Below are positions 43,101-63,581 of a DNA stretch of 64,000 nt, in pieces (within the stretch, counting starts at the first letter, position 1; the number at the start of each line of letters is the position of its first letter). The notes under the pieces were generated by a model. It did no database searches. It saw only the letters and a program-made list of their open reading frames with translations, and had not been told where the DNA came from. This DNA comes from Picochlorum sp. SENEW3 (Eukaryota). The DNA lies in NCBI GenBank assembly GCA_034226945.1, contig CP120457.1:558001-622000 (forward strand), given 5' to 3'. A program made the translations under genes and the position numbers.

Positions 43101-44199
43101 GTACTTGGGGAACGAAAAGGCACTCACCTGACTCTCAGACGAGCTTCGATTATCAACACTACCCCATGTATCAGGATACGTCAACAGATCCAGTGACACC
43201 CCAGCAATATTGAGACTCGTACTTGAAATTCTCTCTAACGATTTCTTTGACATGAAGAATGTTGGAAGGGCAACCATCGCATCAGTCCACGAGCCAAACC
43301 GAATATCTTCATCCTGAATATCAAACGACGATATCTTCTCTTTCGTGACCGGCTCCAACAGCACCCTCCTCAACGACAGACATACGCCATCCCGACCAGA
43401 GTACTTGCACTGCGATGGCCTGGGTCCTGGCTCACCATGTTGCATATAATACATAGACGTATTCGCTAATTCCACATGAACACATTGAATCGCAAACTGA
43501 ATAATTCCATACAAGACAGAGCTCTTCATCTGATCAATATACCCTCCAATAAGCGGAATACTATACCCACGCCGCACTGGGTCCTGGCTAGACACACCCC
43601 ACAGCACCTCATCAATAAGCCGCAACGCCCTCTGCCTCTCACTCAACGCCAAATTTTCTCTTTCCTTCTTCTTCTTCACATGACAGACATCCTCCTGCAC
43701 CCATAATATATATGTAAATGAGTATCACACATGTGCATCCTCATGGTGGCTGAATTCATCCCACCTTTTCAGCTGGAGACATCCACATCTGCTGCGCAGA
43801 TACCCTCGTCCCACGAAGAACCAATCGAATAGGCTCCTTCCACGACGGCACCGACAGTTCCACAGAATCCACCCGAACATCAGTCACCTGTGTCCCCATC
43901 CCATACAGCATCTCTAGTATACTCTTCTTCACAACCACCTCATGGGCCGTGATCCGACCCTCCTCTTCATACACCAACCCTTCCTTATACCCATCACTCA
44001 CTCGTCGAATCAACGCCCCCATCCCCATCACCAACACCCGCTGAATCATTCTAAACCTCTTGGCAACAACCACCCCCACCGCCCCCACTGCTGTGCTGAC
44101 TACCGCCAACACAGCAGAATAATACATCAAAACTATCAATATATGAATCATGATGATGAAAATACCCACAACAAAGCTCAGACCCTCTATATCATACAC
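28108..44199 (-). CDS. VPS13: Giant VPS13-like bridge lipid-transfer protein with C2 domains (~8 exons)
   Basis: Co-linear long ORFs (43756-44199, 39369-43700, 38395-39558, 37767-38309, 35895-37694, 31200-35879, 28108-31203) separated by short intron-like gaps. Features include WEPLLSPW, PYRIEN...PYAWDEP (VAB/SHR-BD-like), two C2-like regions, LQLDNQ, a Gly-rich C-terminal ATG2_C-like region and a PH-like tail. Exon limits are approximate. Confidence 0.85.
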
Positions 44200-44872: not shown

Positions 44873-45598
44873 TCAGAGGTGCCATGATGCCATGGAGACC
44901 AGGGCCACCATCCACAGTCCCACCAAGCTCTGTGAGCCTAGCACAGGAGAAGCATTGCTGGTCTCGCTATTCTGCAGATCGCTGTCAAATTCCGACATGC
45001 TCACGCGGCCATCACCGTCAGCGTCCATTTGGGACATGATCTGGTCTGCTGTCATGCCCACTGCAGTGCAGTTGAGGGTGGAGCAGATCTCGCCGGATGT
45101 CAGCACGCTGTTTGCATCGGTATCAAAGCATCCGAGCCAGTCCTTGATCTGCTGGGGCTCGGTCAGAGACGAGGCGTTATACTTGGCCACCACGCCATTC
45201 AGGCAAGTCTGTGTGGAGGCTCTGAAAGGTGAGGCTGTGGTGCTGTCAGCCATCGTATCAGTGATGGACCCTTGGGAATTTGACGCCAACAACTGCCTTC
45301 TCCGTTGCCTGATCCCATACTTTTCGCAGTACTCCTGAGGACGGCGAAAAGTTTCTCCCCCAGGGCTTTGACGACACCCTCCGGCACAGTTGCATCCGAA
45401 GATATTACACGATCCCTTCCCGCAGTACCACCCTGAAACAATTGTGCAATCACGACAGATTTTCTTGCAGGATGGAATATATGATGGGGGACAACGTAAC
45501 GGATATTCATAAGGTTTGCAGCAGTCTGCGCGGCAGTGCTTCACTGCAGCGAGTGCGAGAACTGCACACAACAGCCACGTATCACTGAGACGCATCAT
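44873..45598 (-). CDS. Family A copy 1: secreted Diedel-like Cys domain + RxLL + 2 EF-hands + GPI-like tail
   Basis: Signal peptide; 12-Cys domain with YCGKGSCNIFGCNCAGGC; RRRQLL; EF loops DTDANSVLTSGE and DADGDGRVSMSE; hydrophobic C-terminus. Confidence 0.85.
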   Translation of the reverse strand: MMRLSDTWLLCAVLALAAVKHCRADCCKPYEYPLRCPPSYIPSCKKICRDCTIVSGWYCGKGSCNIFGCNCAGGCRQSPGGETFRRPQEYCEKYGIRQRRRQLLASNSQGSITDTMADSTTASPFRASTQTCLNGVVAKYNASSLTEPQQIKDWLGCFDTDANSVLTSGEICSTLNCTAVGMTADQIMSQMDADGDGRVSMSEFDSDLQNSETSNASPVLGSQSLVGLWMVALVSMASWHL

Positions 45599-45938
45599 GT
45601 GATCGAATTTATCTTCTTTTCAAAAACAGATGATTGAATTTGTATTTTTTGACCCGGCTTTTGTGGGGCCGGTTCGCAGGTTGTGCTTCGCCTAGATAAG
45701 GGATTGTGGAGGGGCAATCCCTTCGTATGGGAGGCCCGATGGGATGGACGCAAAGATAGGCTAGGTTACGTCACTAGACGTCCGTCATCTGATCGGGCCT
45801 TCCATCGAGCCGGATCGATTGGCAGGAATCTTGCACGAGGGCACGCCTCTTCAAAATCAACAATTCACGGAGACTGGAAAATAGAAAAAGATATTTGCTT
45901 TGTGGTTGGATCCAACAAATTTGTCGCAAAAACCTAGC

Positions 45939-46448
45939 ATGAATTTCTTGGCCTTATCTACGCTCTTGCTGCTTGTAACGCTGCAAAACACCCAAGCCCG
46001 TTCTTGCGTGGTCGGAGTGGATAAAATCGATATTGATAATTTGGATTATGAATATGGATCGCGCAAACTTCTCCCAAAATTCTGCCCGAAGGAGAAGTTT
46101 GAAGAGATGTCGCCACAAAAGGCAACCACTCAGCAGAGGAGTGAATCATTTGAGATGGTATCGGCGGCATTGAAACGCTTTAACGACGACACCAAAGAAG
46201 GGAGATGTGCGTATGGATTTGCGGAGGTCAATGTGCTTGACGGAGTTGGTTGTCGTTTGAAACCAGGCCAGAAGATGGATATGGGAACCAAAACCTATAC
46301 AGCCACCAGGCCAAGCTCGTCAAGTGGCCGAAGCAATGGGTATGCCAAAAAGTCAGTTGTCGTAGAATATACCTGCCTTGGAAACGTTGGAAATAAACGT
46401 TATGTGGCTCTGGCGTACGATGCCAAGTTCACGACGAAATGTATGTAA
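45939..46448 (+). CDS. Small secreted 6-Cys protein of unknown family
   Basis: Signal peptide MNFLALSTLLLLVTLQNTQA, then a basic mature region with 6 Cys. Intronless. Confidence 0.7.
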   Translation: MNFLALSTLLLLVTLQNTQARSCVVGVDKIDIDNLDYEYGSRKLLPKFCPKEKFEEMSPQKATTQQRSESFEMVSAALKRFNDDTKEGRCAYGFAEVNVLDGVGCRLKPGQKMDMGTKTYTATRPSSSSGRSNGYAKKSVVVEYTCLGNVGNKRYVALAYDAKFTTKCM

Positions 46449-47076
46449 GTTGTCCATGAGCAAGCATTACTCAAGCAGGCCACAACTGTGGTACCTGGTC
46501 ACCAGAATGGACTTCACTCTCTTGTGTGAACCATTTGTATAATGCGGCGCCTGAGTGCATCATACAATGATCTCCACAATGTTGCGTACTTTTTTTTTCT
46601 CGTTGTAATATACGGCCTTCGTTTTTATTGTTTAGATTTGATGTATCCTGATCGGGGTTACAGCAACGATCGACCAAATATTCATGGATATTGCTGATCA
46701 GCACGGGAGAGTCCACATTAGTCCAGTCATCACCATGTTGACTGCCACCTACAGAACACTTTTTTCGGCCTGATGAGGCATTTTGTCAAACCAGAGAGGC
46801 TTTTCTAGAGAAATTTGACGGGAACCCCAGAAAGTCGCACATTATCACCTATCCACGCCATGCTACGATTGCGTGAATTTGAATCTGTCATTCTCAATGA
46901 CATCATCCAGCGCTTGTTACATAATTATGTAGAAGGAATCATTTGAACGACGTTTTACGTACTTTATGTCTCAAATGAGGATGATATATACAGGGTTTGA
47001 TGCATGATACACCTCTTGTTTCAGATTCTTGGCTGCCCCTGTGCACAGCACAAAGGAGGGAACAATGGTATTGCAC

Positions 47077-47907
47077 TCACAACAGAAAGAGAACGGCAGT
47101 AGCAAAGATCGAGGCGAAAGCACCACCGATGGAACGTATGCCAGAGCCTGGAGGTGGATTTGGAGATGAATCCAGAGATGGGCTAGGTGATGGCCAATCT
47201 GTCCTTGGGTCACGCAACAAGAGACCAGTTGAAGGGAAGAATACCTGGGAGCTCTCTCCGTCGGGAGAAGAACAAGTAATAGGAGGTAGAACAGTGACGT
47301 TGTTGACCGATCCAGCAATAGAAATACCACGGGGGTTGGCATCATCAGTCTCAAGCAACGTAGCTGGAGAGCCATCAACTTCAAACCTCAAGGTACCTCC
47401 AGCAATATCCGTCGCAACCTTCGCATCCTCTCCTTCAACTGTGGCAATATGCCTCGAGAGAATAGAGGCCAAGAGATCAGTGTCACCCAACAATTCTTCA
47501 GCCGTCATGTTGAAACTGTCTTGAGCAACATAATACAGATCATCAAAAGCACTATCCATGGGGATGATGACCACCAAGTTTCCTTCTGGGGCATCACCAA
47601 TGTCAACATTTGCGGTGGCGTTAAAAATAGCAGAGAGATTCGAAAAGGATGGAGCAGCCAAAATTTCATATGCTTCGGCACAGAGAGGGATCTCTCCAAT
47701 GGTGGTGGCTCCAACTCCACACATCAGGGCTACAGGGCAAAATTCAATGGTGTCACACCGATCGCAACCGAATACGCGTCGGCCTCTGCGATATCGCCGA
47801 CAATTATGTACTCGCGGGATATATACGCCTTGGGCAACACAAACTCCGCCCGGAGTGCAGATTCGTCACGCACCCAACGTCAACAAAGCCACGGATTCTT
47901 TCATCAT
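47077..47907 (-). CDS. Fasciclin (FAS1)-like, probably GPI-anchored surface protein, 2 exons
   Basis: Spliced signal peptide MMKESVALLTLALMCGVGA (intron 47730-47873). FAS1-like motifs VVIIPMDSAF and LLASILSRH, a Pro/Ser stalk and a hydrophobic C-terminus. Confidence 0.65.
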
Positions 47908-48588
47908 GCAACCGGTTTGCAACAATGTCCTTGAGAGTCTGGCTCGATAGTGTAGGAAAATGCAAAATCTTTTGAGTCTTGTTGTATGTGAGCCCATGCG
48001 CTGCTCCAGACAGACTCATGTATACATGTATGGATGCAAGGTTCTGGATAGGTGCGTAATTTGCCAGGGTCGAAACATCACGCAAATTGGTGCTTTTATA
48101 AAAAACTAATTGGTGACGTAACCTAGCCTACTTTTGCGTCCGTCATCTGATCGGGCCTTCCATCGAGCCGGATCGATTGGCAGGAATCTTGCACGAGGGC
48201 ACGCCAGCAACCCTGGTGCGGAATATTGTTATTGAAAAGATAAACTATATATTTGTTTTTCAATTGTGTCTTGGGCAAAGAAACCATCCATAAAGGCGCG
48301 TTCTTTGATGTGTCGTTACGCACGCAGGCGTGTGGGCTTCTGTCCTGGTAGTGTTGTTGAGCAGCAATTGGACCCCATCATTGGGGTATTGCTGTCTTAT
48401 GTTTCAAATATAACATACACATGATATGATACGATCGTACTTGATTGCTTCGTTGCTTGTGATTGCAGATTCTCGCTCACTCGCACGGTCTGCAATACAA
48501 CCAAGGGTGAGAAGGACGTTGAGAAAAGGACACCGCGGCAGAGATCAGGCATCGGCTCTTCGACCAGAAGATTCGACAGTGATACGAT

Positions 48589-49530
48589 ATGAGCAGTCCC
48601 TACCCGGCACAAGGTGATGGCGACAAGGATGGGCCCACGCCTGGACTGGGAAAGTCCTCCCCCAGGCCGGCCCTAGTGGCATATGAGAAGGGTGATACTG
48701 TGGTGGACGTGGAGTCATTGCTCCGCTCCTGCAGCGCCAATGGTCTGTCTGCAAAGCTGACTGACCGCATCCGGGAGGCGGATGTGGACCGGGACGGTGT
48801 GCTGTCTGTGGACGAGCTTGTGGAGGTGATGCGGCGCGAGATGCAGGCGGTGTCCGACCGGAAGCTGTTCCGCAACATCCTGATTGCCCTATTCGTGGCG
48901 GTGCTGGTGCTGATTGCAACTCTATGTGGCACAGTGTATGCTATCGTGGACTTGAGCAAGGAGGTGAAGAACGACAACGGTGTGCTGGTATCCTCGTCTT
49001 CTGGGGATGTCATGGCCACTGGGACCGCCCAACAAACGGTGACGGTTGGTCCAGAGCTACTGAGCCTTCTGGAGTTTCCGGAATCATTGATTAATGCGCA
49101 ATCGGTGATCATTCCCACCACGGCAGGCGGTAAGGCCACAACTTTGGTATACAAGGTTGCCAAAATAACCTCGTCTCCTGAGATGGGCTCCATGGAGGTC
49201 CTCACCCTGGATGGCACGACCTTGCTCACGAATCAGTCGGGGATGTACGAGCAATCGGGCGGTGGTGAGTATCTTCCTGTGTTTGAGCTGGTTGAAAGCC
49301 GACGTAGGCTGCTGATCGACAGCGTTGGGATGCCGGAAACCCAAGGAGCGCCAAGCGTGGTTGTGCAAGCAAGCTCAGGTACTGGTGTTCTACCTGGGTA
49401 TTCACCTCTATCTACTGAATGCTTCAGCTGCATCCAAAATTGCAGAAACAAATATAATCGTGACCGATCATTGGATTGGTCAGAGTACGTAGATTGCATG
49501 GATAGGTGCAAAACAGATTACTGTTACTGA
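48589..49530 (+). CDS. Family B copy 1: EF-hand + TM + luminal domain + RRRLL + Cys-rich peptide
   Basis: EF loop DVDRDGVLSVDE; TM NILIALFVAVLVLIATLCGTVYAIV; SRRRLL; C-terminal CFSCIQNC...CMDRC...C. Confidence 0.85.
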   Translation: MSSPYPAQGDGDKDGPTPGLGKSSPRPALVAYEKGDTVVDVESLLRSCSANGLSAKLTDRIREADVDRDGVLSVDELVEVMRREMQAVSDRKLFRNILIALFVAVLVLIATLCGTVYAIVDLSKEVKNDNGVLVSSSSGDVMATGTAQQTVTVGPELLSLLEFPESLINAQSVIIPTTAGGKATTLVYKVAKITSSPEMGSMEVLTLDGTTLLTNQSGMYEQSGGGEYLPVFELVESRRRLLIDSVGMPETQGAPSVVVQASSGTGVLPGYSPLSTECFSCIQNCRNKYNRDRSLDWSEYVDCMDRCKTDYCY

Positions 49531-51144: not shown

Positions 51145-52179
51145 TCAATCAATACAGTTGTACTGCTTGCCAAGGTTCAGAGCGGACTGGTAATCTCCTG
51201 GACGCCCATAGTTCACGCACCCATCCCACAAAGGATGGTTGAATAAAATCCTATATTGTCGGAACTTTTCGCAAATACAAGAGGTTTGTGAAACGTCCAT
51301 GGCAGAGGGTCCAATTTCTAGACACCAGTTAACCCCTGATATAAGATAGTTGCAGGAAAACCCTAAAATACCACTACTATCGCTTGTCACGTCTCCCGTT
51401 GTCCCCATATCCATGACAATGGTTGCTCCGCTGTGTCCAGGTACCCCATCATCACCCTCGCTCATCAGTTTTCTGCGGCGATTACCGTCCGACAAGAGCA
51501 AAGGACTGTAATTATTGTCGCCTTCATCAGAAATCTTGTACACTCCCGACTGGTTCATAAAGAGGGTCGTGCCGTCCACGGTGTTGACCTCCAATGTGCC
51601 TGTGCTGGGAAATGCCGTCATCTTGCCAACCTTGTACACGGTAGTCTTGCCACCGTCGACGGTAGGAATGACCACCGAGTGCGCTTTGCTCAGTGATGAT
51701 GGGAAATTAAGCATGCTCAGTAGCTCTGGACCAACCGTCACCGTTTGTTGGGCGGTCCCAGTGGCCATGACATCCCCAGAAGACGAGGACACCAGCACAC
51801 CGTTGTCGTTCTTCACCTCCTTGCTCAGGTCGATGATGGCATATACCGTGCCGCACAGCGTGGCCACCAGCACCAGCACCGCCGCGAACAGAGCGATCAG
51901 GATGTTGCGGAACAGCTTGCGATCTGAGACCGCCTGCATCTCTGTGCGAATCACCTCAATGAGCTCGTCCACAGACAGAGCGCCATCGTGATCCACATCC
52001 GCCTGCCGGATACGCTCAGCCACTTTGGGGGATAAGCCCTTCATGCTGCAAGAACGCAACAGGGCATCCACATCCACCACGACATTGCCATGCTCGTTTG
52101 ACAAGGTGGGCGAGGTGGGGAATGATTTTAGTCCAACTTCTACGGGGACATCGCCATGTCCATTGTCTTCGTTTCCCAT
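51145..52179 (-). CDS. Family B copy 2 (inverted, divergent)
   Basis: EF loop DVDHDGALSVDE, the same TM, RRRKLM, and a different 6-Cys C-terminal peptide. ATG at 52179. Confidence 0.85.
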   Translation of the reverse strand: MGNEDNGHGDVPVEVGLKSFPTSPTLSNEHGNVVVDVDALLRSCSMKGLSPKVAERIRQADVDHDGALSVDELIEVIRTEMQAVSDRKLFRNILIALFAAVLVLVATLCGTVYAIIDLSKEVKNDNGVLVSSSSGDVMATGTAQQTVTVGPELLSMLNFPSSLSKAHSVVIPTVDGGKTTVYKVGKMTAFPSTGTLEVNTVDGTTLFMNQSGVYKISDEGDNNYSPLLLSDGNRRRKLMSEGDDGVPGHSGATIVMDMGTTGDVTSDSSGILGFSCNYLISGVNWCLEIGPSAMDVSQTSCICEKFRQYRILFNHPLWDGCVNYGRPGDYQSALNLGKQYNCID

Positions 52180-52782: not shown

Positions 52783-53538
52783 ATGATGATGCGTGTCGGC
52801 GAGATGGGGTTGTTCTGTGCTGCTCTCGCACTCGTGGTGCGAGGCTCACAGGCGGATTGCTGCTATCATTATTCCTACTCCATTTTTATTTGCCCGAAAA
52901 GTTCATTTCCACGCCGAGGTAGTATGTGCATATCCGAGTGGTCTGTCTGCCTGGACTGCACAAAAACCAACTATTGGTACTGTGGGAAGGGACCATGCAA
53001 CATATTTGGGTGCAACTGTGACGGAGGGTGTCGCGAAAGGCCAGTTGGAGAGACAGGCAAACCTCAGGAATATTGCGCCAGGCACGGCCTTCCACCTACA
53101 AACATGAAGAGCAAGCGACTCCTGATGGCGTCAGATAGCAAGATGTCTTCGAGTGACGCAGCCCTGATGATGACTGACAACTCCACAGCCTCACCTTACA
53201 GTGCTTCCACACAGGCCTGCCTGGATGGCGTGGTGGCCAAGTACAACGCCTCCTCTCTCACTGAGCCCCGGCAGATCAAGGACTGGCTTGGCTGTTTTGA
53301 CGCCGATGCAAACAGCATGCTCTCCTTGGACGAGATCTGCTCCACCCTCAACTGCACCGCATTGGGCATGACAGCAGACCAGATCATGTCACAGATAGAT
53401 ACTGATGGTGATGGCATCGTGAGCATGTCAGAGTTTGACAGCGACCTGCAGGGATTTGAGACCAGCAATGCTCGGTCTGTGCTGCTTGTCAGCTGGAGTT
53501 TGATGGGCTCATGGCTGGTGACCCTGGTGGCATGGTGA
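52783..53538 (+). CDS. Family A copy 2 (inverted, divergent)
   Basis: Signal peptide; 12-Cys domain with YCGKGPCNIFGCNCDGGC; KSKRLL; two EF-hands; hydrophobic tail. Confidence 0.85.
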   Translation: MMMRVGEMGLFCAALALVVRGSQADCCYHYSYSIFICPKSSFPRRGSMCISEWSVCLDCTKTNYWYCGKGPCNIFGCNCDGGCRERPVGETGKPQEYCARHGLPPTNMKSKRLLMASDSKMSSSDAALMMTDNSTASPYSASTQACLDGVVAKYNASSLTEPRQIKDWLGCFDADANSMLSLDEICSTLNCTALGMTADQIMSQIDTDGDGIVSMSEFDSDLQGFETSNARSVLLVSWSLMGSWLVTLVAW

Positions 53539-53996
53539 CTATGCGGCACAGCGGACCTGTGCTGTGTTTGGTGTTCGCCAAGCATGCTGCTTTCTCATCC
53601 ATAGATGGATGGACATCTGTCTCATTGAGACAGTCACAAGGAAGGTGTGGAACAAACCGGTTTTAGGTGAGACCATCCTCACATATCCTCTGAGAATACC
53701 ATTTCAACACATTTTCTCAACTTCAGAAGGTTCTGCATCCCTATGATGATGGTGCACGTAGCTCCTTCAATTTCTCAAACTTTCATATGATAAAATACAT
53801 GCATGTAAGGATTTCGTCCTGTGGAACTTGAACGATTTGGAGGATATTCGTCATATTTTTCGCCAGTCTCGTACTACTTCCTTTAGAGAAAGAAAAATCT
53901 CCTCATCTAGGCAATAAAAAATAGGAAAATTTAAGAGAATCAAGGACTGTGGCAGATTGTCTTCCTCGCCTTTCTGTGTACAGGGTCGCTGGAAAC

Positions 53997-54890
53997 ATGG
54001 AGAAGGCTACCCAGTCTACCCACAGACACGCAGCCTTGGTCCCAGCAGCAGAAGAAAACGCTGTGGATCTAGCAACGAAACATGCGGGAAGGAAGGTATG
54101 GTTGATCAAGGTACCAGAATTTGTAGCCAAGGAGTGGAGGCGTGCCTGTCACGACACGACATCCTCTGCCCCCAGAAAACCTTCTCAGCAGGATGATCCC
54201 GCCGATGATAATGGTCTCACAACAGAAGACCAACAACATAAACAAAAACCGGACAGAACCACGGCGACGATGCGGCAGCAAGGCGAGTCTCCCGTCATCT
54301 TGGGCACATTGTCCATTGGGCAGGGTGTCACCTTGCGTTTATCTGATTCGTTCGAGGGGACCAAGGAGCTTCCAAAGGAATACAACCTCGTGAATAATGC
54401 TCGAGCTGGGCCATCCATGATGGTCTTCTCGGACGATGGGGATGGACTGTACAGGTCTGTTGAAGGTATTGTCCAACACCGGTTGGATGTGAATGCTCGT
54501 GATATTCAGGATGCGTATCGGCGGGTGTCGAGGGAGCGATTTAAACGAGAAGCGGAAGGAGGGTCTCGGAAGAAGCGCACGGTCAAGATGATGACGGATA
54601 GTAAGATTATTGATATTAGAAAGCCAGTGGGGGCTGTGCAGAAGAAGAAAGAGCGCAAGGATACCTTGTTATTAGAGAAGCGGGTTGCCATGGATAAAAA
54701 GGAATTGCTTCCTGTTTTATTTCGGTTGTTCCAGAGACAATCTCAATGGACGTTTACGCAGTTGCAAAAGGAGACGAATCAGCCAACCCAGCATTTGAAG
54801 ATTGTGTTGGGGGAGATTGCAATGCAGAATAAGGCTGGCCCATACAAGGACATGTGGGAATTAAGCAAGGAGAGCAAAGTGCATGTGTAA
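53997..54890 (+). CDS. GTF2F2: Transcription initiation factor IIF beta subunit (RAP30)
   Basis: Motifs KVWLIKVPEFVAKEW and LPKEY, plus the winged-helix LF.LF....WT..QL...TNQP...LK.VL.EI...NK.GP....WEL. Confidence 0.9.
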   Translation: MEKATQSTHRHAALVPAAEENAVDLATKHAGRKVWLIKVPEFVAKEWRRACHDTTSSAPRKPSQQDDPADDNGLTTEDQQHKQKPDRTTATMRQQGESPVILGTLSIGQGVTLRLSDSFEGTKELPKEYNLVNNARAGPSMMVFSDDGDGLYRSVEGIVQHRLDVNARDIQDAYRRVSRERFKREAEGGSRKKRTVKMMTDSKIIDIRKPVGAVQKKKERKDTLLLEKRVAMDKKELLPVLFRLFQRQSQWTFTQLQKETNQPTQHLKIVLGEIAMQNKAGPYKDMWELSKESKVHV

Positions 54891-54999
54891 TAATTATTTG
54901 GTATGTATGTAATATCGTAGTCGTAGTAGGTATATGGATGATGCCGGACATGATGGTAGCGAGGCTACCAGGAATTCGACAAGGAGGCCTTTGGGGAGA

Positions 55000-55162
55000 C
55001 TGACTGCCGCCAACACAGCAGAATAATACATCAAAACTGTCAGTATATGAATCATCATGATATGAAAATACCCACAACAAAGCTCAAACCCTCTATATCA
55101 TACACGAGTCGTGAGAAGAAACACCAAACCGGTACAAAGAGAACAACACAGTGGTGCTGATG
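55000..55162 (-). pseudogene. Duplicated 5' fragment and upstream region of the VPS13-like gene (also ~58152-58314 and ~61306-61468)
   Basis: Matches ~44096-44256 (ccgccaacacagcagaataatacatcaaaact...cacagtggtgctgatg). Confidence 0.85.
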
Positions 55163-55305
55163 GGATCTCATTGCCATCCACCCTATATACACATCAAGGA
55201 GGACCGGACAGGTCGTGCATCACCCGGCACTAGATCAAAGTGATTCAAAACCTGGAAACGAGGCATACCTGCAAAAGAGCATGCTCGGAGGCAATCTGAA
55301 AACCA

Positions 55306-56025
55306 TCAGAGGTGCCATGATGCCATGGAGACCAGGGCCACCATCCACAGTCCCACCAAGCTCTGTGAGCCTAGCACAGGAGGAACATTGCTGGTCTCGC
55401 TATTCTGCAGATCGCTGTCAAATTCCGACATGCTCACGCGGCCATCACCGTCAGCGTCCATTTGGGACATGATCTGGTCTGCTGTCATGCCCACTGCAGT
55501 GCAGTTGAGGGTGGAGCAGATCTCGCCGGATGTCAGCACGCTGTTTGCATCGGTATCAAAGCATCCGAGCCAGTCCTTGATCTGCTGGGGCTCGGTCAGA
55601 GACGAGGCGTTATACTTGGCCACCACGCCATTCAGGCAAGTCTGTGTGGAGGCTCTGAAAGGTGAGGCTGTGGTGCTGTCAGCCATCGTATCAGTGATGG
55701 ACCCTTGGGAATTTGACGCCAACAACTGCCTTCTCCGTTGCCTGATCCCATACTTTTCGCAGTACTCCTGAGGACGGCCTCTTACTACCCAATGGCTTTG
55801 ACGACACCCTCCGGCACAGTTGCATCCGAAGATATTACACGATCCCTTCCCGCAGTACCACCCTGAAACTCTTGTGCAATCACGACAGATAAACTGGCAA
55901 GATTCAATAAGGTCGTCACAACCGAACGGATATTCATAAGGTCTGCAGCAGTCTGCGCGGCAGTGCTTCACTGCAGCGAGTGCGAGAACAGCACAAAACA
56001 GCCACGTATCACTGAGACGCATCAT
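55306..56025 (-). CDS. Family A copy 3
   Basis: Near-identical to A1 except in two loops of the Cys domain (PFGCDDLIESCQF; SHWVVRGRP). Confidence 0.85.
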   Translation of the reverse strand: MMRLSDTWLFCAVLALAAVKHCRADCCRPYEYPFGCDDLIESCQFICRDCTRVSGWYCGKGSCNIFGCNCAGGCRQSHWVVRGRPQEYCEKYGIRQRRRQLLASNSQGSITDTMADSTTASPFRASTQTCLNGVVAKYNASSLTEPQQIKDWLGCFDTDANSVLTSGEICSTLNCTAVGMTADQIMSQMDADGDGRVSMSEFDSDLQNSETSNVPPVLGSQSLVGLWMVALVSMASWHL

Positions 56026-56644
56026 GTGATCAGATTTATCTTCTTTTTCTTCTTTTCAAAAACAAATACCCTTGAATTTGTATTTTTTGACCCGGCTTTT
56101 GTGGGGCCGGTTCGCAGGTTGTGCTTCGCCAAAGGGATTGTGGAGGGGCAATCCCTTCGTATGGGAGGCCCGATCGGATGGACGCAAAGGTAGGCAAGGT
56201 TACGTCACTAGACGTCCGTCATCTCATCCGGCCTTCCATCGAGCCGGATCGATTGGCAGGAATCTTGCACGAGGGCACGCCAGCAACCCTGGCGCGGAAT
56301 ATTGTTATTGAAAAGATAGACTATATATTTGCTTTCCAGTTTTGTTCTGGGCAAATAAGCCATCCATAAAGGCGCGTTCTTTGATGTGCCGTTACGCACG
56401 TAGGCGTGTGGTAGTGTCGTTGAGCAGCAACTGGACCTAATCATCGGGGTATTATTGCTGTCTTTTGTTTCAAATATAATATATACATGATAGTAATTGA
56501 TTGCTTCGTCGCTTGTGATTGCAGATTCTCGGTCACTCGCACCGTCTGCAATACAACCAAGGGTGAGAAGAACATTGAGAAAAGGACACCGCGGCAGAGA
56601 TCAGGCATTGGCCCCTGGACCAGACGATTCGACAGTGGTACGAT

Positions 56645-57598
56645 ATGAGCAGTCCCTACCCGGCACAAGGTGATGGCGATAAGGATGGGCCCACGCCTGG
56701 ACTGGGAAAGTCCTCCCCCAGGCCGCCCCCAGTGGCATACGAGAAGGGTGATACCGTGGTGGACGTGGAGTCATTGCTCCGCTCCTGCAGCGCCAAGGGC
56801 CTGTCTGAAAAGCTGACTGACCGCATCCGGGAGGCGGATGTGGACCGGGACGGTGTGCTGTCTGTGGACGAGCTTGTGGAGGTGATGCGGCGTGAGATGC
56901 AGGCGGTGTCCGACCGCAAGCTGTTCCGCAACATCCTGATTGCCCTATTCGTGGCGGTGCTGGTGCTGATTGCAACTCTATGTGGCACAGTGTATGCTAT
57001 CGTGGACTTGAGCAAGGAGGTGAAGAATGACAATGGGGTGCTGGTATCCTCGTCCTCTGGTGATGTCATGTCAACAGGCTCTGCCCAGCAGACGGTGACG
57101 GTTGGTCCAGAGCTGCTGGCTCTGCTCGACTTCCCCGAATCCCTCAGCAATGTTCACTCATTGGTTATTCCTGCCATGGAAGGTGATGAGACGACGGTGT
57201 ACAAGACTGCGAAACTCATCTCGTCGCCTGGCACAGGTTCCATGAATATTGCCACAGTGGACGGCACACTGCTGCTCATGAACCAGTCTGGCGTGTACGA
57301 GCGCTCCGAGTCCGATGGATACGTCCCTATATTTGAAATGTCTGATCGCCGCCGTAAGCTGCTGATCGACAGAGTCGAGGGACCAGGTTCCCAAGGAGCA
57401 CCAAGTGTGGTTGTGAGCATGGCATCTGGTCCTGTACGCCCCAGATACAGATGGGGCCCATGCCTCTATAGAGGGTTTAAGGCTCTTTGTTATAAATCGT
57501 GCTATCGTCGTTACGATTGGAACACCGTTGAGGTCAGTGATTGTCAGGGGCGATGTGATAAAAAATATGATTGTGGCCTCGACAGTACTTTGCAGTAA
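56645..57598 (+). CDS. Family B copy 3
   Basis: EF-hand, TM, RRRKLL, and C-terminal C...CYKSC...CQGRC...C. Confidence 0.85.
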   Translation: MSSPYPAQGDGDKDGPTPGLGKSSPRPPPVAYEKGDTVVDVESLLRSCSAKGLSEKLTDRIREADVDRDGVLSVDELVEVMRREMQAVSDRKLFRNILIALFVAVLVLIATLCGTVYAIVDLSKEVKNDNGVLVSSSSGDVMSTGSAQQTVTVGPELLALLDFPESLSNVHSLVIPAMEGDETTVYKTAKLISSPGTGSMNIATVDGTLLLMNQSGVYERSESDGYVPIFEMSDRRRKLLIDRVEGPGSQGAPSVVVSMASGPVRPRYRWGPCLYRGFKALCYKSCYRRYDWNTVEVSDCQGRCDKKYDCGLDSTLQ

Positions 57599-57931
57599 TC
57601 AACAGCAACAAGTGCATACAGACTGCGCAGGGCATGCTGTTGGTTGTGAAGACATCATCCAAGCAGGAATGCAATCAATTGCAGCGCACCCAAACCGAAA
57701 ATATTAACAATACCAAATACTGATACTAGTGGGTATTGTTAAATAATACTTGTACAGATATGAAACATTGGTACATGAAATTGCTTGTATTCTCTGAAAT
57801 GCCATCAACATGGATGGATGCCACAAAGGGCATGTTTGATGCTAAAAAACACTGGCCAAACTAATCAATCCAGAACCAGGACACAATCCAACCAATGCTC
57901 ATTGTAATCAAAATATAGCAGAACCACCAAG

Positions 57932-58036
57932 CAACCCAGCATTTGAAGAGTGTTGGGGGAGATTGCAATGCAGAATAAGGCTGGCCCATACAAGGACATG
58001 TGGGAACTAAGCAAGGAAAGCAAAGTGCACGTGTAA
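57932..58036 (+). pseudogene. Duplicated 3' fragment of the TFIIF beta gene (second copy at 61098-61202)
   Basis: Matches 54784-54890 (...cagaataaggctggcccatacaaggacatgtggg...gtgtaa) with small indels. Confidence 0.85.
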
Positions 58037-58457
58037 TAATTATTTGGTATGTATGTAATATCGTAGCAGTAGTAGTAGTAGGTATATGGATGATGCTGGA
58101 CATGATGGTAGCGAGGCTACCAGGAATTCGACAAGGAGGCCTTTGGGGAGACTGACTACCGCCAACACAGCAGAATAATACATCAAAACTATCAGTATAT
58201 GAATCATGATGATATGAATATACCCACACAAAAGCTCAGACCCTCTATATCATATACGAGTCGTGAGAAGAAACACCAAACCGGTACAAAGAGAACAACA
58301 CAGTGGTGCTGATGGGATCTCATTGCCATGCACCCTATATGCACATCGAGGAGAACCGGATAGGTCGTGCATCACCCGGCACTAGATCAAAGTGATCCAA
58401 AACATGGAAACGAGGCATACCTGCAAAAGAGCATGCTCAGAAGCAATCTGAAAACCA

Positions 58458-59186
58458 TCAGAGGTGCCATGATGCCATGGAGACCAGGGCCACCATGCAC
58501 AGTCCCACCAAGCTCCATGATCCCAGCACAGGAGGAGCATTGCTGGTCTCGCTATTCTGCAGATCGCTGTCAAATTCCGACATGGTCACGCGGCCATCAC
58601 CATCAGCGTCCATTTGGGACATGATCTGGTCTGCTGTCATGCCCACTGCAGTGCAGTTGAGGGTGGAGCAGATCTCGCCGGATGTCAGCACGCTGTTTGC
58701 ATCGGTATCAAAGCATCCGAGCCAGTCCTTGATCTGCTGGGGCTCGGTCAGAGACGAGGCGTTATACTTGGCCACCACGCCATTCAGGCAAGTCTGTGTG
58801 GAGGCTCTGAAAGGTGAGGCTGTGGTGCTGTCAGCCATCGTATCAGTGATGGACCCTTGGGAATTTGACGCCAACAACTGCCTTCTCCGTTGCCTGATCC
58901 CATACTTTTCGCAGTACTCCTGAGGACGGCGAAAAGTTTCTCCCCCAGGGCTTTGACGACACCCTCCGGCACAGTTGCATCCGAAGATATTACACGATCC
59001 CTTCCCGCAGTACCACCCTGAAACTCTTGTGCAATCACGACAGATTTTCTTGCAGGATGGAATACGTGGGGGATATAGACAACGTAACGGATATTCATAA
59101 GGTTTGCAGCAGTCTGCGCGGCAGTGCTTCACTGCAGCGAGTGCGAGAACTGCACACAACAGCCACGTATCACTGAGACGCATCAT
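58458..59186 (-). CDS. Family A copy 4
   Basis: Near-identical to A1, with variable loop CLYPPRIPSC. Confidence 0.85.
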   Translation of the reverse strand: MMRLSDTWLLCAVLALAAVKHCRADCCKPYEYPLRCLYPPRIPSCKKICRDCTRVSGWYCGKGSCNIFGCNCAGGCRQSPGGETFRRPQEYCEKYGIRQRRRQLLASNSQGSITDTMADSTTASPFRASTQTCLNGVVAKYNASSLTEPQQIKDWLGCFDTDANSVLTSGEICSTLNCTAVGMTADQIMSQMDADGDGRVTMSEFDSDLQNSETSNAPPVLGSWSLVGLCMVALVSMASWHL

Positions 59187-59814
59187 GTGATCGAATTTAT
59201 CTTCTTTTCAAAAACAGATGATTGAATTTGTATTTTTTGACCCGGCTTTTGTGGGGCCGGTTCGCAGGTTGTGCTTCGCCTAGATAAGGGATTGTGGAGG
59301 GGCAATCCCTTCGTATGGGAGGCCCGATGGGATGGACGCAAAGATAGGCTAGGTTACGTCACTAGACGTCCGTCATCTGATCGGGCCTTCCATCGAGCCG
59401 GATCGATTGGCAGGAATCTTGCACGAGGGCACGCCAGCAAACCCTGGCGCGGAATATTGTTATTGAAAAGATAGACTATATATTTGTTTTCCAATTTTGT
59501 TGTGGGCAAACAAGCCATCCATAAAGGCGCGTTCTTTGATGTGTGTCGTTACGCACGCAGGCGTGTGGGCTTCTGTCCTGGTAGTGTTGTTGAGCAGCAA
59601 GTGGACCCCATCATTGGGGTATTATTGCTATCTTTTGTTTCAAATATAATATATACATGATAGTAATTGATTGCTTCGTCGCTTGTGATTGCAGATTCTC
59701 GGTCACTCGCACCGTCTGCAATACAACCAAGGGTGAGAAGAACATTGAGAAAAGGACACCGCGGCAGAGATCAGGCATCGGCTCTTCGACCAGAAGATTC
59801 GACAGTGATACGAT
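59187..59814. promoter_or_regulatory. Putative bidirectional promoter between A and B (homologs at 56026-56644; split at 45599-45847 + ~48137-48588)
   Basis: Conserved ~620 bp spacer between divergent start codons. It contains ttacgtca (TGACGTAA on the opposite strand, CRE/bZIP-like). Confidence 0.6.
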
Positions 59815-60720
59815 ATGAGCAGTCCCTACCCGGCACAAGGTGATGGCGATAAGGATGGGCCCACGCCTGGACTGGGAAAGTCCTCCCCCAGGCCGGCCCT
59901 AGTGGCATATGAGAAGGGTGATACTGTGGTGGACGTGGAGTCATTGCTCCGCTCCTGCAGCGCCAAGGGCCTGTCTTCAAAGCTGACTGACCGCATCCGG
60001 GAGGCGGATGTGGACCGGGACGGTGTGCTGTCTGTGGACGAGCTTGTGGAGGTGATGCGGCGCGAGATGCAGGCGGTGTCCGACCGGAAGCTGTTCCGCA
60101 ACATCCTGATTGCCCTATTCGTGGCGGTGCTGGTGCTGATTGCAACTCTATGTGGAACAGTGTATGCGATCGTGGACTTGAGCAAGGAGGTGAAGAACGA
60201 CAATGGGGTGCTGGTATCCTCGTCCTCTGGTGACGTGATGGCCACAGGGACAGCCCAGCAAACGGTGACGGTTGGTCCAGAGCTGCTGGCTCTGCTCGAC
60301 TTCCCCGAATCCCTCAGTAATGTTCACTCACTGGTCATTTCTGCCATTGGAGGCGATGAGACGACGGTGTACAAGATTGCGAAACTCATCTCGTCGCCTG
60401 GCACAGGTTCCATGAATATTGCCACAGTGGACGGCACAATGCTGCTCGTGAACCAGTCTGGCGTGTACGAGCGCTCCGAGCCCGATGAATACATGCCTGT
60501 ATTTGAAATGTCTGATAGCCGTCGTAAGCTGCTGATCGACAGTGTCGAGCGACCAGGTTCCCAAGGAGCTCCAAGTGTGGTTGTGAGCGTGGGATCTGGT
60601 CCCATAACACCCAGATACAGCCCATGCGTCAATTGTTATAAAGCGTGCTATGATAATTACGGAAACGCTGTTGATGTCAGTGATTGTCACGGGCGATGTC
60701 GTAAAACACATTATTGTTGA
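59815..60720 (+). CDS. Family B copy 4
   Basis: EF-hand, TM, SRRKLL, and C-terminal CVNCYKAC...CHGRC...C. Confidence 0.85.
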   Translation: MSSPYPAQGDGDKDGPTPGLGKSSPRPALVAYEKGDTVVDVESLLRSCSAKGLSSKLTDRIREADVDRDGVLSVDELVEVMRREMQAVSDRKLFRNILIALFVAVLVLIATLCGTVYAIVDLSKEVKNDNGVLVSSSSGDVMATGTAQQTVTVGPELLALLDFPESLSNVHSLVISAIGGDETTVYKIAKLISSPGTGSMNIATVDGTMLLVNQSGVYERSEPDEYMPVFEMSDSRRKLLIDSVERPGSQGAPSVVVSVGSGPITPRYSPCVNCYKACYDNYGNAVDVSDCHGRCRKTHYC

Positions 60721-61611
60721 TCAACAGTACTTTGCTGTAATCAACAGCAACAAGTGCATACAGACTGCGCAGTGCATGCTGTTGATTGTGAAGACACCAT
60801 CCAAGCAGGAATGAAATCAATTGCAGCGCACCCAAACCGAAAAAGTTAACAATACAAAATACTAATACCAGTGGGCATTGTGAATATTAATAATAATACT
60901 TGTTCAAAAAACCATGTAGATATGAAACATTTGTACATGATGCTACTTGTATTCTCTGAAATGCCATCAACATGGATCCCACAAAGGGCATGTTTGATGC
61001 TAAAAAACACTGGCCAAACTAATCAATCCAGAACCAGGACACAATCCAACCAATGCTCATTGTAATCAAAATATAGCAGAACCACCCACCCACCAAGCAA
61101 CCCAGCATTTGAAGTGTGTTGGGGGAGATTGCAATGCAGAATAAGGCTGGCCCATACAAGGACATGTGGGAATTAAGCAAGGAGAGCAGAGTGCATGTGT
61201 AATAATTATTTGGTATGTATGTAATATCGTAGTAGGTATATGGATGATGCTGGACATGATGGTAGCGAGGCTACCAGGAATTCGACAAGGAGGCCTTTGG
61301 GGAGACTGACTACCGCCAACACAGCAGAATAATACATCAAAACTATCAGTATATGAATCATGATGATATGAATATACCCACAACAAAGCTCAGACCCTCT
61401 ATATCATGCACGAGTCGTGAGGAAAAACACCAAACCGTTACAAAGAGAACAACACAGTGGTGCTGATGGGATCTCATTGCCATGCACCCTATATGCACAT
61501 CGAGGAGAACCGGATAGGTCGTGCATCACCCGGCACTAGATCAAAGTGATTCGAAACCTGAAAACGAGGCATACCTGCAAAAGAGCATGCTCGGAGGCAA
61601 TCTGAAAACCA

Positions 61612-62050
61612 TCAGAGGTGCCATGATGCCATGGAGACCAGGGCCACCATCCACAGTCCCACCAAGCTCTGTGAGCCTAGCACAGGAGGAACATTGCTGG
61701 TCTCGCTATTCTGCAGATCGCTGTCAAATTCCGACATGCTCACGCGGCCATCACCGTCAGCGTCCATTTGGGACATGATCTGGTCTGCTGTCATGCCCAC
61801 TGCAGTGCAGTTGAGGGTGGAGCAGATCTCGCCGGATGTCAGCACGCTGTTTGCATCGGTATCAAAGCATCCGAGCCAGTCCTTGATCTGCTGGGGCTCG
61901 GTCAGAGACGAGGCGTTATACTTGGCCACCACGCCATCCAGGCAAGTCTGTGTGGAGGCACTGAAAGGTGAGGCTGTGGTGCTGTCAGCCATCGTATCAG
62001 TGATGGACCCTTGGGAATTTGACGCCAACAACTGCCTTCTCCATTGCCTG
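61612..62050 (-). pseudogene. Family A copy 5, 5'-truncated (signal peptide and Cys domain missing)
   Basis: Homology to family A ends at ~62050, just upstream of the (W)RRQLL site. The EF-hand/GPI half is intact. Confidence 0.75.
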
Positions 62051-62630
62051 GTTTTAGGCCTAAGTGGCAATCATGTATACATATGTATATATATAGGCCC
62101 ACAGTTCTGGATAGGAGCGTAATCTGCCGGGGTCGGAACATCACGCAAATTGGTGTTGCTAGTGACGTAACCTAACCTACTTTTGCGTATGTCATCTAGA
62201 TGATATCTCGTGCGAAAATTGCATTCATAATTCATACTCATAAACACCGCTATTCTCCGATAAAAAAATTATTTCGAATAGTGTGAAATAGTTCAATACA
62301 ATTGTCGGGAAAGATTCAGGCTTTCCTTCAGGCGAAATTTATTCTTTTTAGGCGGAACGGTCCTAAGTTCTAGGTTTGTTGGGCACGAGTACGTGTTTCG
62401 CTAGGTGGGCTACTGTGGGATTGGGTTTGTGCGGGTTCATGGAAATTATACACTTTTAAAAGTACATCATTAATTAAATACAGCAGAACACTCTGAATGA
62501 CTGTTGTTACAGCACGCTGCCATTGTCCTTCTGGCCTATTCAGGCCCTCTGCGCATACCAAAACCAAATAGAATTCGTGTCTTTCTTCAGCCGTATTCAA
62601 TCAATCTTCTGGCGGTTTGTGCAGGACGAG

Positions 62631-63581
62631 ATGCAAGATAAGGAGGCTGCAATTGACGAAGGGGTGGTGGACGTGGAGTTGCTGCTGCAGAATGGGGCCA
62701 TCCCACCCAAGCTGGCAGACCGCATACGAGCAGCGGATGCCAATCAGGATGGGCGCCTCTCAGTGCTGGAGCTGGTGGAGGTGATGCGCAGAGAGCAGAA
62801 GGCGGTTGAGGACCGCAAGCTATTCCGTAACATAATGTTGGCCCTTCTCGTTGCCGTGCTGGTGCTGATTGCTACGCTGTGTGGCACAGTCTACGGCATT
62901 GTCAAGCTGACGCAGGAGGTGAATGACCAGGATGGTTTGCTGGTGTCAGCCTCCACTGGAGAGGTGATGGGCACAGGACTGGCACAGGAACCACTCCCTT
63001 TATCTCGCCTGTATCGTTTCGGTGACTCCTCCGAGTTGAGAAATGTGGAGAGTGTCATTGTCGCCTCGAAGCCGGACGAAGGCAGTGCTGATGGCAGTGA
63101 GGAGGTGCAAATGTTTCGAGTATCCAAAATCAGCGCAGTGCCGAACGTGCGCGCCACGGTATACACAGTCGACGGCAGCAAGCTAGAGGTAGACGACACA
63201 GGTGTGCGTGTGGTGGACCAGGATAATGACGTCACGCAGTCTTCTGGTGGCAGAAGACTTTCTGAGACTGCTCCTGTGCAGACTGGAGGGGACGGCACTG
63301 TGCCAGTTGACGCCTATGTGGTTGCCAACATCTCACCCCGTTCAAATGGATGCGACTCTAGTTTGGTAAACAGTTATAAGTGGTGCTTTGACAACTACTC
63401 GAGTGATAGTGACATAGCGCGTTGTCAAGCACGTGCCCAGCAAAGGTATCAGGAATGCAATGCAACCTCTTGCGACAGTTCCAGTTATATGCGAGCATAT
63501 AAGTGGTGTTTGGACAACTACTCGGGTGACAGTGACATAGCGGGTTGCCAAGCAAGAATGCGGGAAAGGTATAACTGTTAA
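62631..63581 (+). CDS. Family B copy 5 (divergent; duplicated C-terminal peptide)
   Basis: EF loop DANQDGRLSVLE, TM, GGRRLS, and two tandem 4-Cys units. ATG at 62631; an upstream exon is possible because gtgcag lies just before it. Confidence 0.8.
   Translation: MQDKEAAIDEGVVDVELLLQNGAIPPKLADRIRAADANQDGRLSVLELVEVMRREQKAVEDRKLFRNIMLALLVAVLVLIATLCGTVYGIVKLTQEVNDQDGLLVSASTGEVMGTGLAQEPLPLSRLYRFGDSSELRNVESVIVASKPDEGSADGSEEVQMFRVSKISAVPNVRATVYTVDGSKLEVDDTGVRVVDQDNDVTQSSGGRRLSETAPVQTGGDGTVPVDAYVVANISPRSNGCDSSLVNSYKWCFDNYSSDSDIARCQARAQQRYQECNATSCDSSSYMRAYKWCLDNYSGDSDIAGCQARMRERYNC
63351..63578 (+). repeat. Internal coding tandem duplication (120-nt period) in B5
   Basis: CDSS...YKWC.DNYS.DSDIA.CQAR...RY..C occurs twice, starting at 63351 and 63471. 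Confidence 0.9.

Follow-up and report, generated by a model that had tools for sequence, protein, structure and literature searches.

In conotoxins and in the plant DEFL and SCR peptides, a conserved pre-pro region precedes a hypervariable mature peptide built on a cysteine framework. Bacterial polymorphic toxins (Rhs, CdiA) place a demarcation motif between a conserved N-terminal delivery part and unrelated C-terminal modules, and ATF6, bZIP28 and SREBP are laid out as type II membrane proteins with a luminal RxxL site. RALF peptides contain cysteines; in RALF23, as in CLEL6/GLV1 and PROSCOOP12, an RRxL or RxLx site for S1P (SBT6.1) or SBT3.5 lies directly upstream of a C-terminal bioactive peptide, and the precursors are soluble, with a cleavable signal peptide and without an EF-hand domain or transmembrane (TM) anchor. 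Alpha-hairpinins and vicilin-buried peptides (EcAMP1, BWI-2c, Luffin P1, MiAMP2, Tk-AMP-X, VBP-8) are variable modules, present in multiple copies and cut from a larger precursor that has a signal peptide and N-proximal cysteine modules, with or without a vicilin. Alpha-hairpinins have two disulfides, C1-C4 and C2-C3, and their activities include antimicrobial action, trypsin inhibition and ribosome inactivation. The alpha-hairpinin motif is C1X3C2-X4-20-C3X3C4, and six-cysteine variants exist (PMC7191063, PMC11591084). Here we describe a gene family, designated family B, in a 64,000-nucleotide stretch of Picochlorum sp. SENEW3 DNA (hereafter the window: GenBank assembly GCA_034226945.1, contig CP120457.1, positions 558,001 to 622,000 of the forward strand). 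Its proteins consist of a conserved carrier and a cysteine-rich C-terminal peptide, the tip; the tip of paralogue B3 is the feature under study.

The window is nuclear DNA of a eukaryote, a trebouxiophyte green alga; it includes ordinary housekeeping genes (ATP-sulfurylase, PFK, Met-tRNA ligase, VPS13, TFIIF-beta) and five family B paralogues, B1 to B5. B3 (56645..57598, + strand) is a single-exon open reading frame (ORF) of 317 amino acids plus stop. Its C-terminal 59 residues occupy 57419-57595, with the stop codon at 57596-57598; an earlier reading of the letters alone (the sequence-only reading) had put this end at 57420..57598, right to within one base of the codon boundary, codon 259 beginning at 57419. 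B4 is at 59815..60720 (+; tip 60586-60717) and B1 at 48589..49530 (+; tip 49372-49527). B2 (51145..52179, - strand, start taken at MGNEDNG as in its relative P0006) has a different class of six-cysteine tip, of the form C..C..CxC..C..C. The fifth member, B5 (62631..63581, +, start as in P0023), was missing from the sequence-only reading; its tip is a pair of four-cysteine modules (63330-63458 and 63459-63578). There are 28 homologues of B3, and those with names are all from Picochlorum (Picochlorum sp. BPE23, Picochlorum “Picsp_1”). Apart from one “surface protein,” relatives are called “hypothetical protein” throughout the databases, and a description of the family was found neither in full-text literature searches nor in the available part of one Picochlorum genome paper. 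At somewhat better than even odds (about 0.55), we read the family B proteins as membrane-tethered propeptides that release variable extracellular peptides.

The carrier of B3 begins with an EF-hand loop and helices (residues 59-83; 56819..56893, +) in what is probably a cytosolic N-terminal domain. This gives the only Pfam signal on the carrier (EF-hand_1, 22.9 bits, below the 25.4 cut-off), and residues 26-90 of the structural model align with EF-hand pair domains at Z 5-6.5 (VIA-align, 48,161 chains). A single TM helix or signal anchor follows at about residues 97-119 (56933..57001, +), called from hydropathy, which over 19 residues peaks at 2.84 at residue 97; a hydrophobic segment or signal peptide was looked for at the N-terminus of B3 and not found, and there is one TM helix only. 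Next comes a conserved beta-rich domain (residues 126-231; 57020..57337, +), assigned to the luminal or extracellular side, with strands modelled at a predicted local distance difference test (pLDDT) of 77-92 and an NQS sequon at residue 213. The full-length AlphaFold2 model (30-row alignment, mean pLDDT 69) runs in the order EF-hand-like helical domain, long helix including 97-119, beta domain, disordered segment 235-250, strand, and two tip helices. Foldseek matched this model to nothing in the PDB at E<=0.001, and for the beta domain there was no clear PDB fold match; VIA-align gave a single unconvincing one, to the VirK family (Z 6.4).

Topology signals were tallied over 65 non-redundant relatives. 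The 12-residue flank before the TM helix carries a net charge of +2.85, vs. -0.43 for the flank after it, and the N-side flank is the more positive in 64 of the 65. N-x-S/T sequons are fewer than expected ahead of the helix (8 vs. 17) and more numerous than expected beyond it (114 vs. 68), and in 29 of the 65 relatives one lies within 14 residues of the R-x-L site described below. These measures point to a type II membrane topology for the carrier, its N-terminus cytosolic and its C-terminus luminal or outside. The charge bias and the sequons would place the R-x-L site in the secretory lumen, and the parity of cysteine numbers in the tails (below) fits as well.

The putative processing site of B3 is RRRKLL (residues 235-240; 57347..57364, +), read as a subtilase (S1P/SBT-type) site R-K-L-L from its conservation and its match to published sites. 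Across 30 aligned sequences R237 never varies and the conservation of L239 is at least 90%, and R[RKS]x?L occurs in 33/33 first-round proteins, 112-131 residues past the anchor sequence LCGTVY. The site reads RRRLL or RRKLL in B1, B3 and B4, and RRLS rather than RRxL in B5. A profile search of 1.84 billion representatives yielded 674 relatives at E<=1e-3, 151 of them at E<=1e-10. The carrier hidden Markov model was run on 299 sequences, and 196 extend to the end of the model, where the carrier closes with R-x-L-x in 192 and with R-R-x-L in 4; RRLM (100) and RRLL (60) predominate. Because this set is redundant, the 196 counts are not independent. RALF23 is cleaved at INRRIL↓ATRRY by AtS1P/SBT6.1 and PROSCOOP12 at TGRRLM↓GSGASG by SBT3.5, the canonical S1P consensus being RxxL/RxLx (PMC13082318), and SKI-1-like subtilases are reported throughout Archaeplastida (PMC6713707). 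The RRIL↓A and GRRLM↓G sites nearly match that of family B, which has an RxxL/RxLx motif upstream of its tip as S1P/SBT propeptides do. In three relatives (P0055, P0224, P0226) the tail has one or two further GRRRLM or GRRHLM sites between cysteine-rich modules, and these look like multi-peptide precursors on sequence grounds.

The segment around the site is modelled as disordered (pLDDT <50, residues 235-250). Past it, B1, B3 and B4 have in common a conserved spacer (residues 241-261 in B3, including APSVVV; 57365..57427, +) with the consensus xDSVxxPxxQGAPSVVV, of which residues 254-259 are modelled as a strand beside the carrier sheet (block 251-260, mean pLDDT 71). It contributes to a distance from site to first cysteine of 32 residues in B3 and 30-35 across the three. 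Nothing comparable to this conserved stretch of about 30 residues follows the site in RALF, CLEL, and PROSCOOP precursors, and cleavage in family B is putative. Other subfamilies have something comparable 8-17 residues past the site, a short stretch that is either hydrophobic or of the form G-[ST]-x-[ST]-G-x-V.

What follows the site varies widely. Grouped by shared 4-mers, 194 tails resolve into 119 unrelated types behind one carrier; 3 tails are shorter than 10 residues. The constant carrier with a variable tip that the sequence-only reading saw in the window is therefore a broader phenomenon than the window showed, and the types amount to the catalogue of tips in homologs that it called for. 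Cysteine makes up 4.9% of tail residues vs. 0.6% of carrier residues; cysteine numbers are even in 84 tail types, odd in 15 and zero in 20 (even vs. odd, binomial p = 8e-13). A Pfam scan covered 66 of 117 tail-type representatives, those with the longest tails, and found DUF285 repeats in 12, ubiquitin-like domains in 3, and a fasciclin domain, an I29 inhibitor domain and a DUF179 domain in one each; the remaining tails scanned matched no Pfam family, and none of the 66 matched a toxin family. Four relatives (P0067, P0203, P0269, P0261) have a ubiquitin-like tail behind a GRRRLM site, two of them ending in LRLRGG. Relatives with names are trebouxiophytes only (Picochlorum, Nannochloris “desiccata”), the others being metagenome contigs. 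In the ESM Atlas the neighbours are clusters named “hypothetical protein,” for the most part with the labels Bacillariophyta, Chlorophyta, and Haptophyta; an extension of the carrier design to diatoms and haptophytes, read from cluster labels alone, is a lead only.

The variable tip of B3 (residues 262-317; 57428..57595, +) has cysteines at 273, 282, 286, 300, 304 and 310, with spacings of 8, 3, 13, 3, and 5. The corresponding spacings are 2, 3, 12, 3, 5 in B4 and 2, 3, 17, 3, 4 in B1. All three contain C1X3C2-X(4-20)-C3X3C4, with n = 13, 12, and 17, respectively. This bears out the earlier description of B1, B3 and B4 as an RRxLL site and spacer followed by a six-cysteine end with paired CX3C elements (CIQNC/CMDRC, CYKSC/CQGRC, CYKAC/CHGRC) and an outer cysteine pair. 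B2 was rightly set apart: its spacings are 9, 14, 1, 17, and 20, a CxC pattern also present in P0005 to P0011, and its tail does not match that of B5 by BLASTP (E=3.5). The two B5 modules are homologous to the B4 tip (BLASTP 1e-8 and 1e-6). Both retain the inner and outer cysteine pairs and lack the equivalents of motif positions C1 and C4, so the invariant core of this lineage of peptides does not include the CX3C pairs; the joint loss would be consistent with a C1-C4 bond.

Shuffled tip cores recreate CX3C-X4-20-CX3C in about 1.5-1.7% of 20,000 trials. Because the three tips are mutually homologous, they count as one event, not three. In the repertoire as a whole, 11 of the 119 tail types have the strict motif where 1.0 +/- 1.0 would be expected, and none of 500 shuffles reached 11; the excess is unlikely to be chance.

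An AlphaFold2 model of the B3 tip alone (10-row alignment, mean pLDDT 66.5, helices 77-84) has helix 1 at R18-R31, including C24 and C28, and helix 2 at V37-Y50, including C42 and C46, with C15 and C52 just outside them. The full-length model agrees, with helices at 276-289 and 297-307, giving predicted helices at 57470-57511 and 57533-57565 in the DNA. The structure prediction proposed in the sequence-only reading thus yields a helix-loop-helix with one CX3C per helix, which is the alpha-hairpinin fold. Cysteines lie symmetrically about the loop, at -7/+7, -11/+11, and about -20/+17, and three nested disulfides (C286-C300, C282-C304 and C273-C310 in B3 numbering) would fit this arrangement.

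Foldseek returned 31 PDB matches to the B3 tip at E<=10. BWI-2c, two chains of Jug r 2, and VBP-8 fill the first four rows, with target-normalised TM-scores of 0.55-0.70 and root-mean-square deviations of 1.2-2.6 A; lower rows include Tk-hefu, the vicilin leaders of Ara h 1, Jug r 2, and Pis v 3, and Luffin P1. VIA-align favoured the same group (VBP-8, Z 4.7; Jug r 2, 4.2; BWI-2c and Luffin P1, 4.1). Several of these structures are alpha-hairpinins. PMC7191063 deals with BWI-2, MiAMP2, Tk-AMP-X, and peptides derived from vicilins. Identity in the structural alignments is 17-26%, mostly cysteine, and a phmmer search of 177,635 distinct PDB sequences with the B3 tip gave 0 matches at E<=10. Family B tips and the alpha-hairpinins have in common the motif (n 12-17), the predicted fold and an occurrence as variable modules in multiple copies, and the tips, like alpha-hairpinins, would be cut from a larger precursor. 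They differ in other respects. In family B the precursor is an EF-hand membrane protein of type II, and its single module (two in B5) lies at the extreme C-terminus, behind R-x-L; the outer cysteines stand at X2/X8 and X4/X5, not at X3/X3; and homologous B5 modules do without the CX3C pairs. The likeness to alpha-hairpinins first noticed in the letters thus survives as motif, predicted fold, and best (if weak) structural matches, and fails as to sequence homology and precursor type.

Self-BLASTN shows the array to be a tandem segmental duplication (54784..62050), in which 54784-58896 matches 57932-62050 at 92.6%; each unit holds one B gene head to head with one gene of a second family, A, described below. 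B3 and B4 were said to be near-identical upstream and divergent at the end, and they are: 93% over 240 carrier codons vs. 24/40 tip residues, plus 16 gap columns. Between their carriers, synonymous (dS) and nonsynonymous (dN) divergence are 0.107 and 0.033 (dN/dS 0.31); between their tips, they are 0.158 and 0.253 (dN/dS 1.60; 20.5 nonsynonymous and 3.5 synonymous changes), a contrast with Fisher p = 0.013. Three internal indels in the tip (6, 18, and 3 nt) are in frame and leave all six cysteines in place; a 1-nt indel past the last cysteine shifts the stop.

DNA homology of B1 to B3 and B4 begins some 450 nt ahead of the start codon and ends at B3 position 57415, at the start of the tip (self-BLASTN). 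Over codons 1-120 the nucleotide identity of B1 and B4 is 97-100%, which indicates that the 5′ half has been homogenised; it drops to 0.67-0.72 over codons 151-270 and to 0.38 in the tip. Homology breaks after the spacer and mosaicism breaks in mid-carrier, neither at RRxLL. P0001, the BPE23 orthologue of B4, lies on a 1.1-Mb genome contig and is itself mosaic at the 20 sites where B3 and B4 differ: through residue 178 it is B3-like at 6 of 7 (residue 55 matches neither), from residue 225 it is B4-like at 8/8, and at the five between it is mixed. Recombination or gene conversion thus joins tips to carriers in new combinations, after which each type of tip is maintained. Between strains the tips are conserved: B4 and P0001 differ at 2/61 post-site and 13/240 carrier residues, and B2 and P0006 at 2/105 and 6/239. 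The variability claimed earlier accordingly holds between paralogues and not between strains; it is a paralogue repertoire rather than hypervariability at a single locus.

Two candidate cases were dropped. P0004, with a B2-like N-terminus and a B1-type tail, had been considered as proof of tip exchange; its contig is a 1,482-bp metagenome fragment and may be an assembly chimera joined across the conserved stretch. DNA contigs that leave B3 at 57429-57432, considered as strain variation, look like paralogues mapped onto B3, because the replacement in X2, at 67 letters, is the same size as the B4 length difference.

If family B proteins are membrane-tethered propeptides, the signal anchor would insert the protein so that an EF-hand domain of about 95 residues stays cytosolic and a beta-rich domain of about 130 residues faces the lumen of the endoplasmic reticulum and Golgi, and later the cell exterior. 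The luminal part would fold, be glycosylated and form disulfides. A Golgi subtilase of S1P/SKI-1 or SBT type would then cut at R-x-L-x (RRKLL in B3), freeing the spacer and the C-terminal tip outside, possibly with further trimming. The product from B1, B3, and B4 would be about 40 residues in two antiparallel helices, like an alpha-hairpinin with an extra outer staple, and the repertoire would arise from duplication in tandem, gene conversion acting on the 5′ half, and rapid nonsynonymous change in the tip. Released peptides most likely would act outside the cell; defence or competition is a tentative first guess at their role, and signalling or recognition a second that is nearly as likely.

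Several observations weigh against this proposal. All fold matches to the tip fall below significance (Foldseek E 2.6-9.8; Z under 5), as is partly expected for only about 40 residues, and the models are of moderate confidence (mean pLDDT 66-69) and built on shallow alignments (10 and 30 rows). Cysteine numbers are odd in 15 of the 99 cysteine-bearing tail types, and some tails are ubiquitin-like, odd for luminal cargo. In the model the spacer strand past the site joins the carrier sheet, so that a cut alone might not free the tip; a fragment that stays bound to the carrier until displaced is a low-confidence idea suggested by the model. The same strand would suit proteins that are never processed: calcium-responsive type II surface proteins, such as adhesins or recognition or mating receptors, with the tip permanently attached and R-x-L serving as a structural or sorting motif. 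Cleavage is after all inferred, some of the 66 tail types scanned are of adhesion type (12 with DUF285 and one with fasciclin), and fast change around conserved cysteines is also typical of recognition proteins. We nevertheless consider permanent attachment unlikely, given that the motif is invariant on divergent carriers, recurs between tail modules, matches proven subtilase sites, and sits in a segment modelled as disordered. Selection on the B3 tip is also arguable, since a dN/dS of 1.6 on 24 changes is equally expected from relaxed constraint in a young duplicate. A word search of the protein collection with this tip found no counterpart sharing three 5-residue words, the BPE23 protein P0001 has a B4-type tip, and the stop has moved by a 1-nt indel, all of which could be expected if the B3 tip (57428-57595) were simply a recent duplicate adrift. 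This we think rather improbable for an intact ORF whose internal indels are in frame, whose six cysteines and helix pattern persist, and whose carrier is under purifying selection; it would in any case be compatible with the family model.

The membrane topology admits a different use of the same cut. On sequence features the type II, N-in arrangement of family B with a luminal RxxL/RxLx site would be the arrangement of ATF6, bZIP28 and SREBP; luminal cleavage might prime a second cut that frees the EF-hand domain, with the tip as sensor or lid. Among S1P substrates are bZIP28 and bZIP17 (PMC6713707). However, the cytosolic part is an EF-hand domain of about 90 residues with no transcription-factor, DNA-binding or other effector domain, the site is about 120 residues from the membrane, and a hypervariable, cysteine-rich luminal end suits cargo better than a sensor; such a role is highly improbable. 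Descent of the tips from a common ancestor with land-plant alpha-hairpinins or vicilin-buried peptides is more improbable still, even with the shared motif, predicted fold, and best structural matches, and with 267 putative alpha-hairpinins predicted in algae by motif searches (PMC11591084). The phmmer search, the different precursor, and the B5 modules speak against it, the motif recurs in several separate tail lineages within the family, and toxins of scorpions and cone snails have evolved this motif and fold separately (PMC7191063).

Release of variable peptides from a tether also accords in part with the better-known carrier designs. Like conotoxins and the DEFL and SCR peptides, family B has a conserved carrier, a fast-changing tip with a retained cysteine framework (dN/dS above 1) and tandem genes; unlike theirs, the carrier is a membrane protein with a calcium-binding domain on its cytosolic side, in a unicellular alga. 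The likeness to polymorphic toxins or propeptides that the sequence-only reading drew holds for the delivery part, the short conserved motif, the 119 unrelated module types, and recombination between copies. It does not extend to the modules themselves, with no toxin family or domain among the 66 types scanned, or to the setting, which is eukaryotic and uses the secretory pathway.

Every B gene in the window is head to head with a family A neighbour (44873-45598(-), 52783-53538(+), 55306-56025(-), 58458-59186(-), and 61612-62070(-)), that of B3 being 55306..56025 (-). In family A proteins a signal peptide is followed by a 12-cysteine head, the sequence RRRQLL (as in the partner of B3) or KRLL, an EF-hand domain and, at the C-terminus, a hydrophobic tail. 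Diedel is a family of insects and insect viruses. Family A heads match its Pfam model (PF13164) at 28.7 and, in the partner of B3, 34.0 bits vs. a cut-off of 21.3. Outside the window, 0 of 2 metagenome loci have a family A neighbour; only these two were found, and one ends at the contig edge. The heads vary between units in two short segments and are otherwise near-identical. The copy at 61612-62070 is truncated, its homology stopping at 62050, the limit of the duplicated block. The TFIIF-beta gene (53949-54890(+), Pfam 1.2e-18) adjoins the array, and its 3′ end, copied into each tandem unit (near 57932-58030 and 61098-61180), marks the edge of the block. Relative to the later A/B units, a 2.3-kb insertion (45848-48136) lies between the family A gene at 44873-45598 and B1; it contains ORFs at 45900-46448 (+, 182 amino acids, with an N-terminal hydrophobic stretch) and 47077-47724 (-, 215 amino acids), and a Pfam scan at E<=1e-5 found no family for either. 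Farther upstream, at 28108-43700(-), very long ORFs stand in a row (1031, 1559, 599, 387, and 1443 amino acids), with VPS13 adaptor-binding and C2 domains; these probably make up a single giant VPS13-like gene that introns or frame changes have broken up.

A much larger picture can be drawn, at long odds when its parts are taken jointly: family B could be the Picochlorum branch of a previously undescribed effector system of phytoplankton (green algae, probably diatoms and haptophytes). In such a system, calcium signals set off by grazing, infection or stress would be linked through the EF-hand to delivery via the Golgi and to cleavage of the S1P type. The modules released (helical-hairpin peptides, cysteine-rich folds, DUF285 repeats) would be strain-specific and diversified by duplication, gene conversion, and positive selection. 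It would be a eukaryotic counterpart of bacterial polymorphic toxins, perhaps with the Diedel-like family A proteins as cognate partners.

The secreted peptide biology of marine and halotolerant microalgae is almost unexplored. With family B there is now a defined family whose carrier is clearly delimited, whose probable processing site is close to invariant and whose exchangeable tips form a large catalogue, so that the vague question of whether picoplankton make defence or signalling peptides becomes experimentally concrete. The family would also be a new type of precursor for the alpha-hairpin disulfide scaffold, of interest to peptide engineering, and it suggests that propeptide processing of the S1P type, known from plant RALF, CLEL, and SCOOP, is used much more widely among algae. 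Its interest would be greater yet if family B does prove to belong to a calcium-linked effector-release system shared across phytoplankton.

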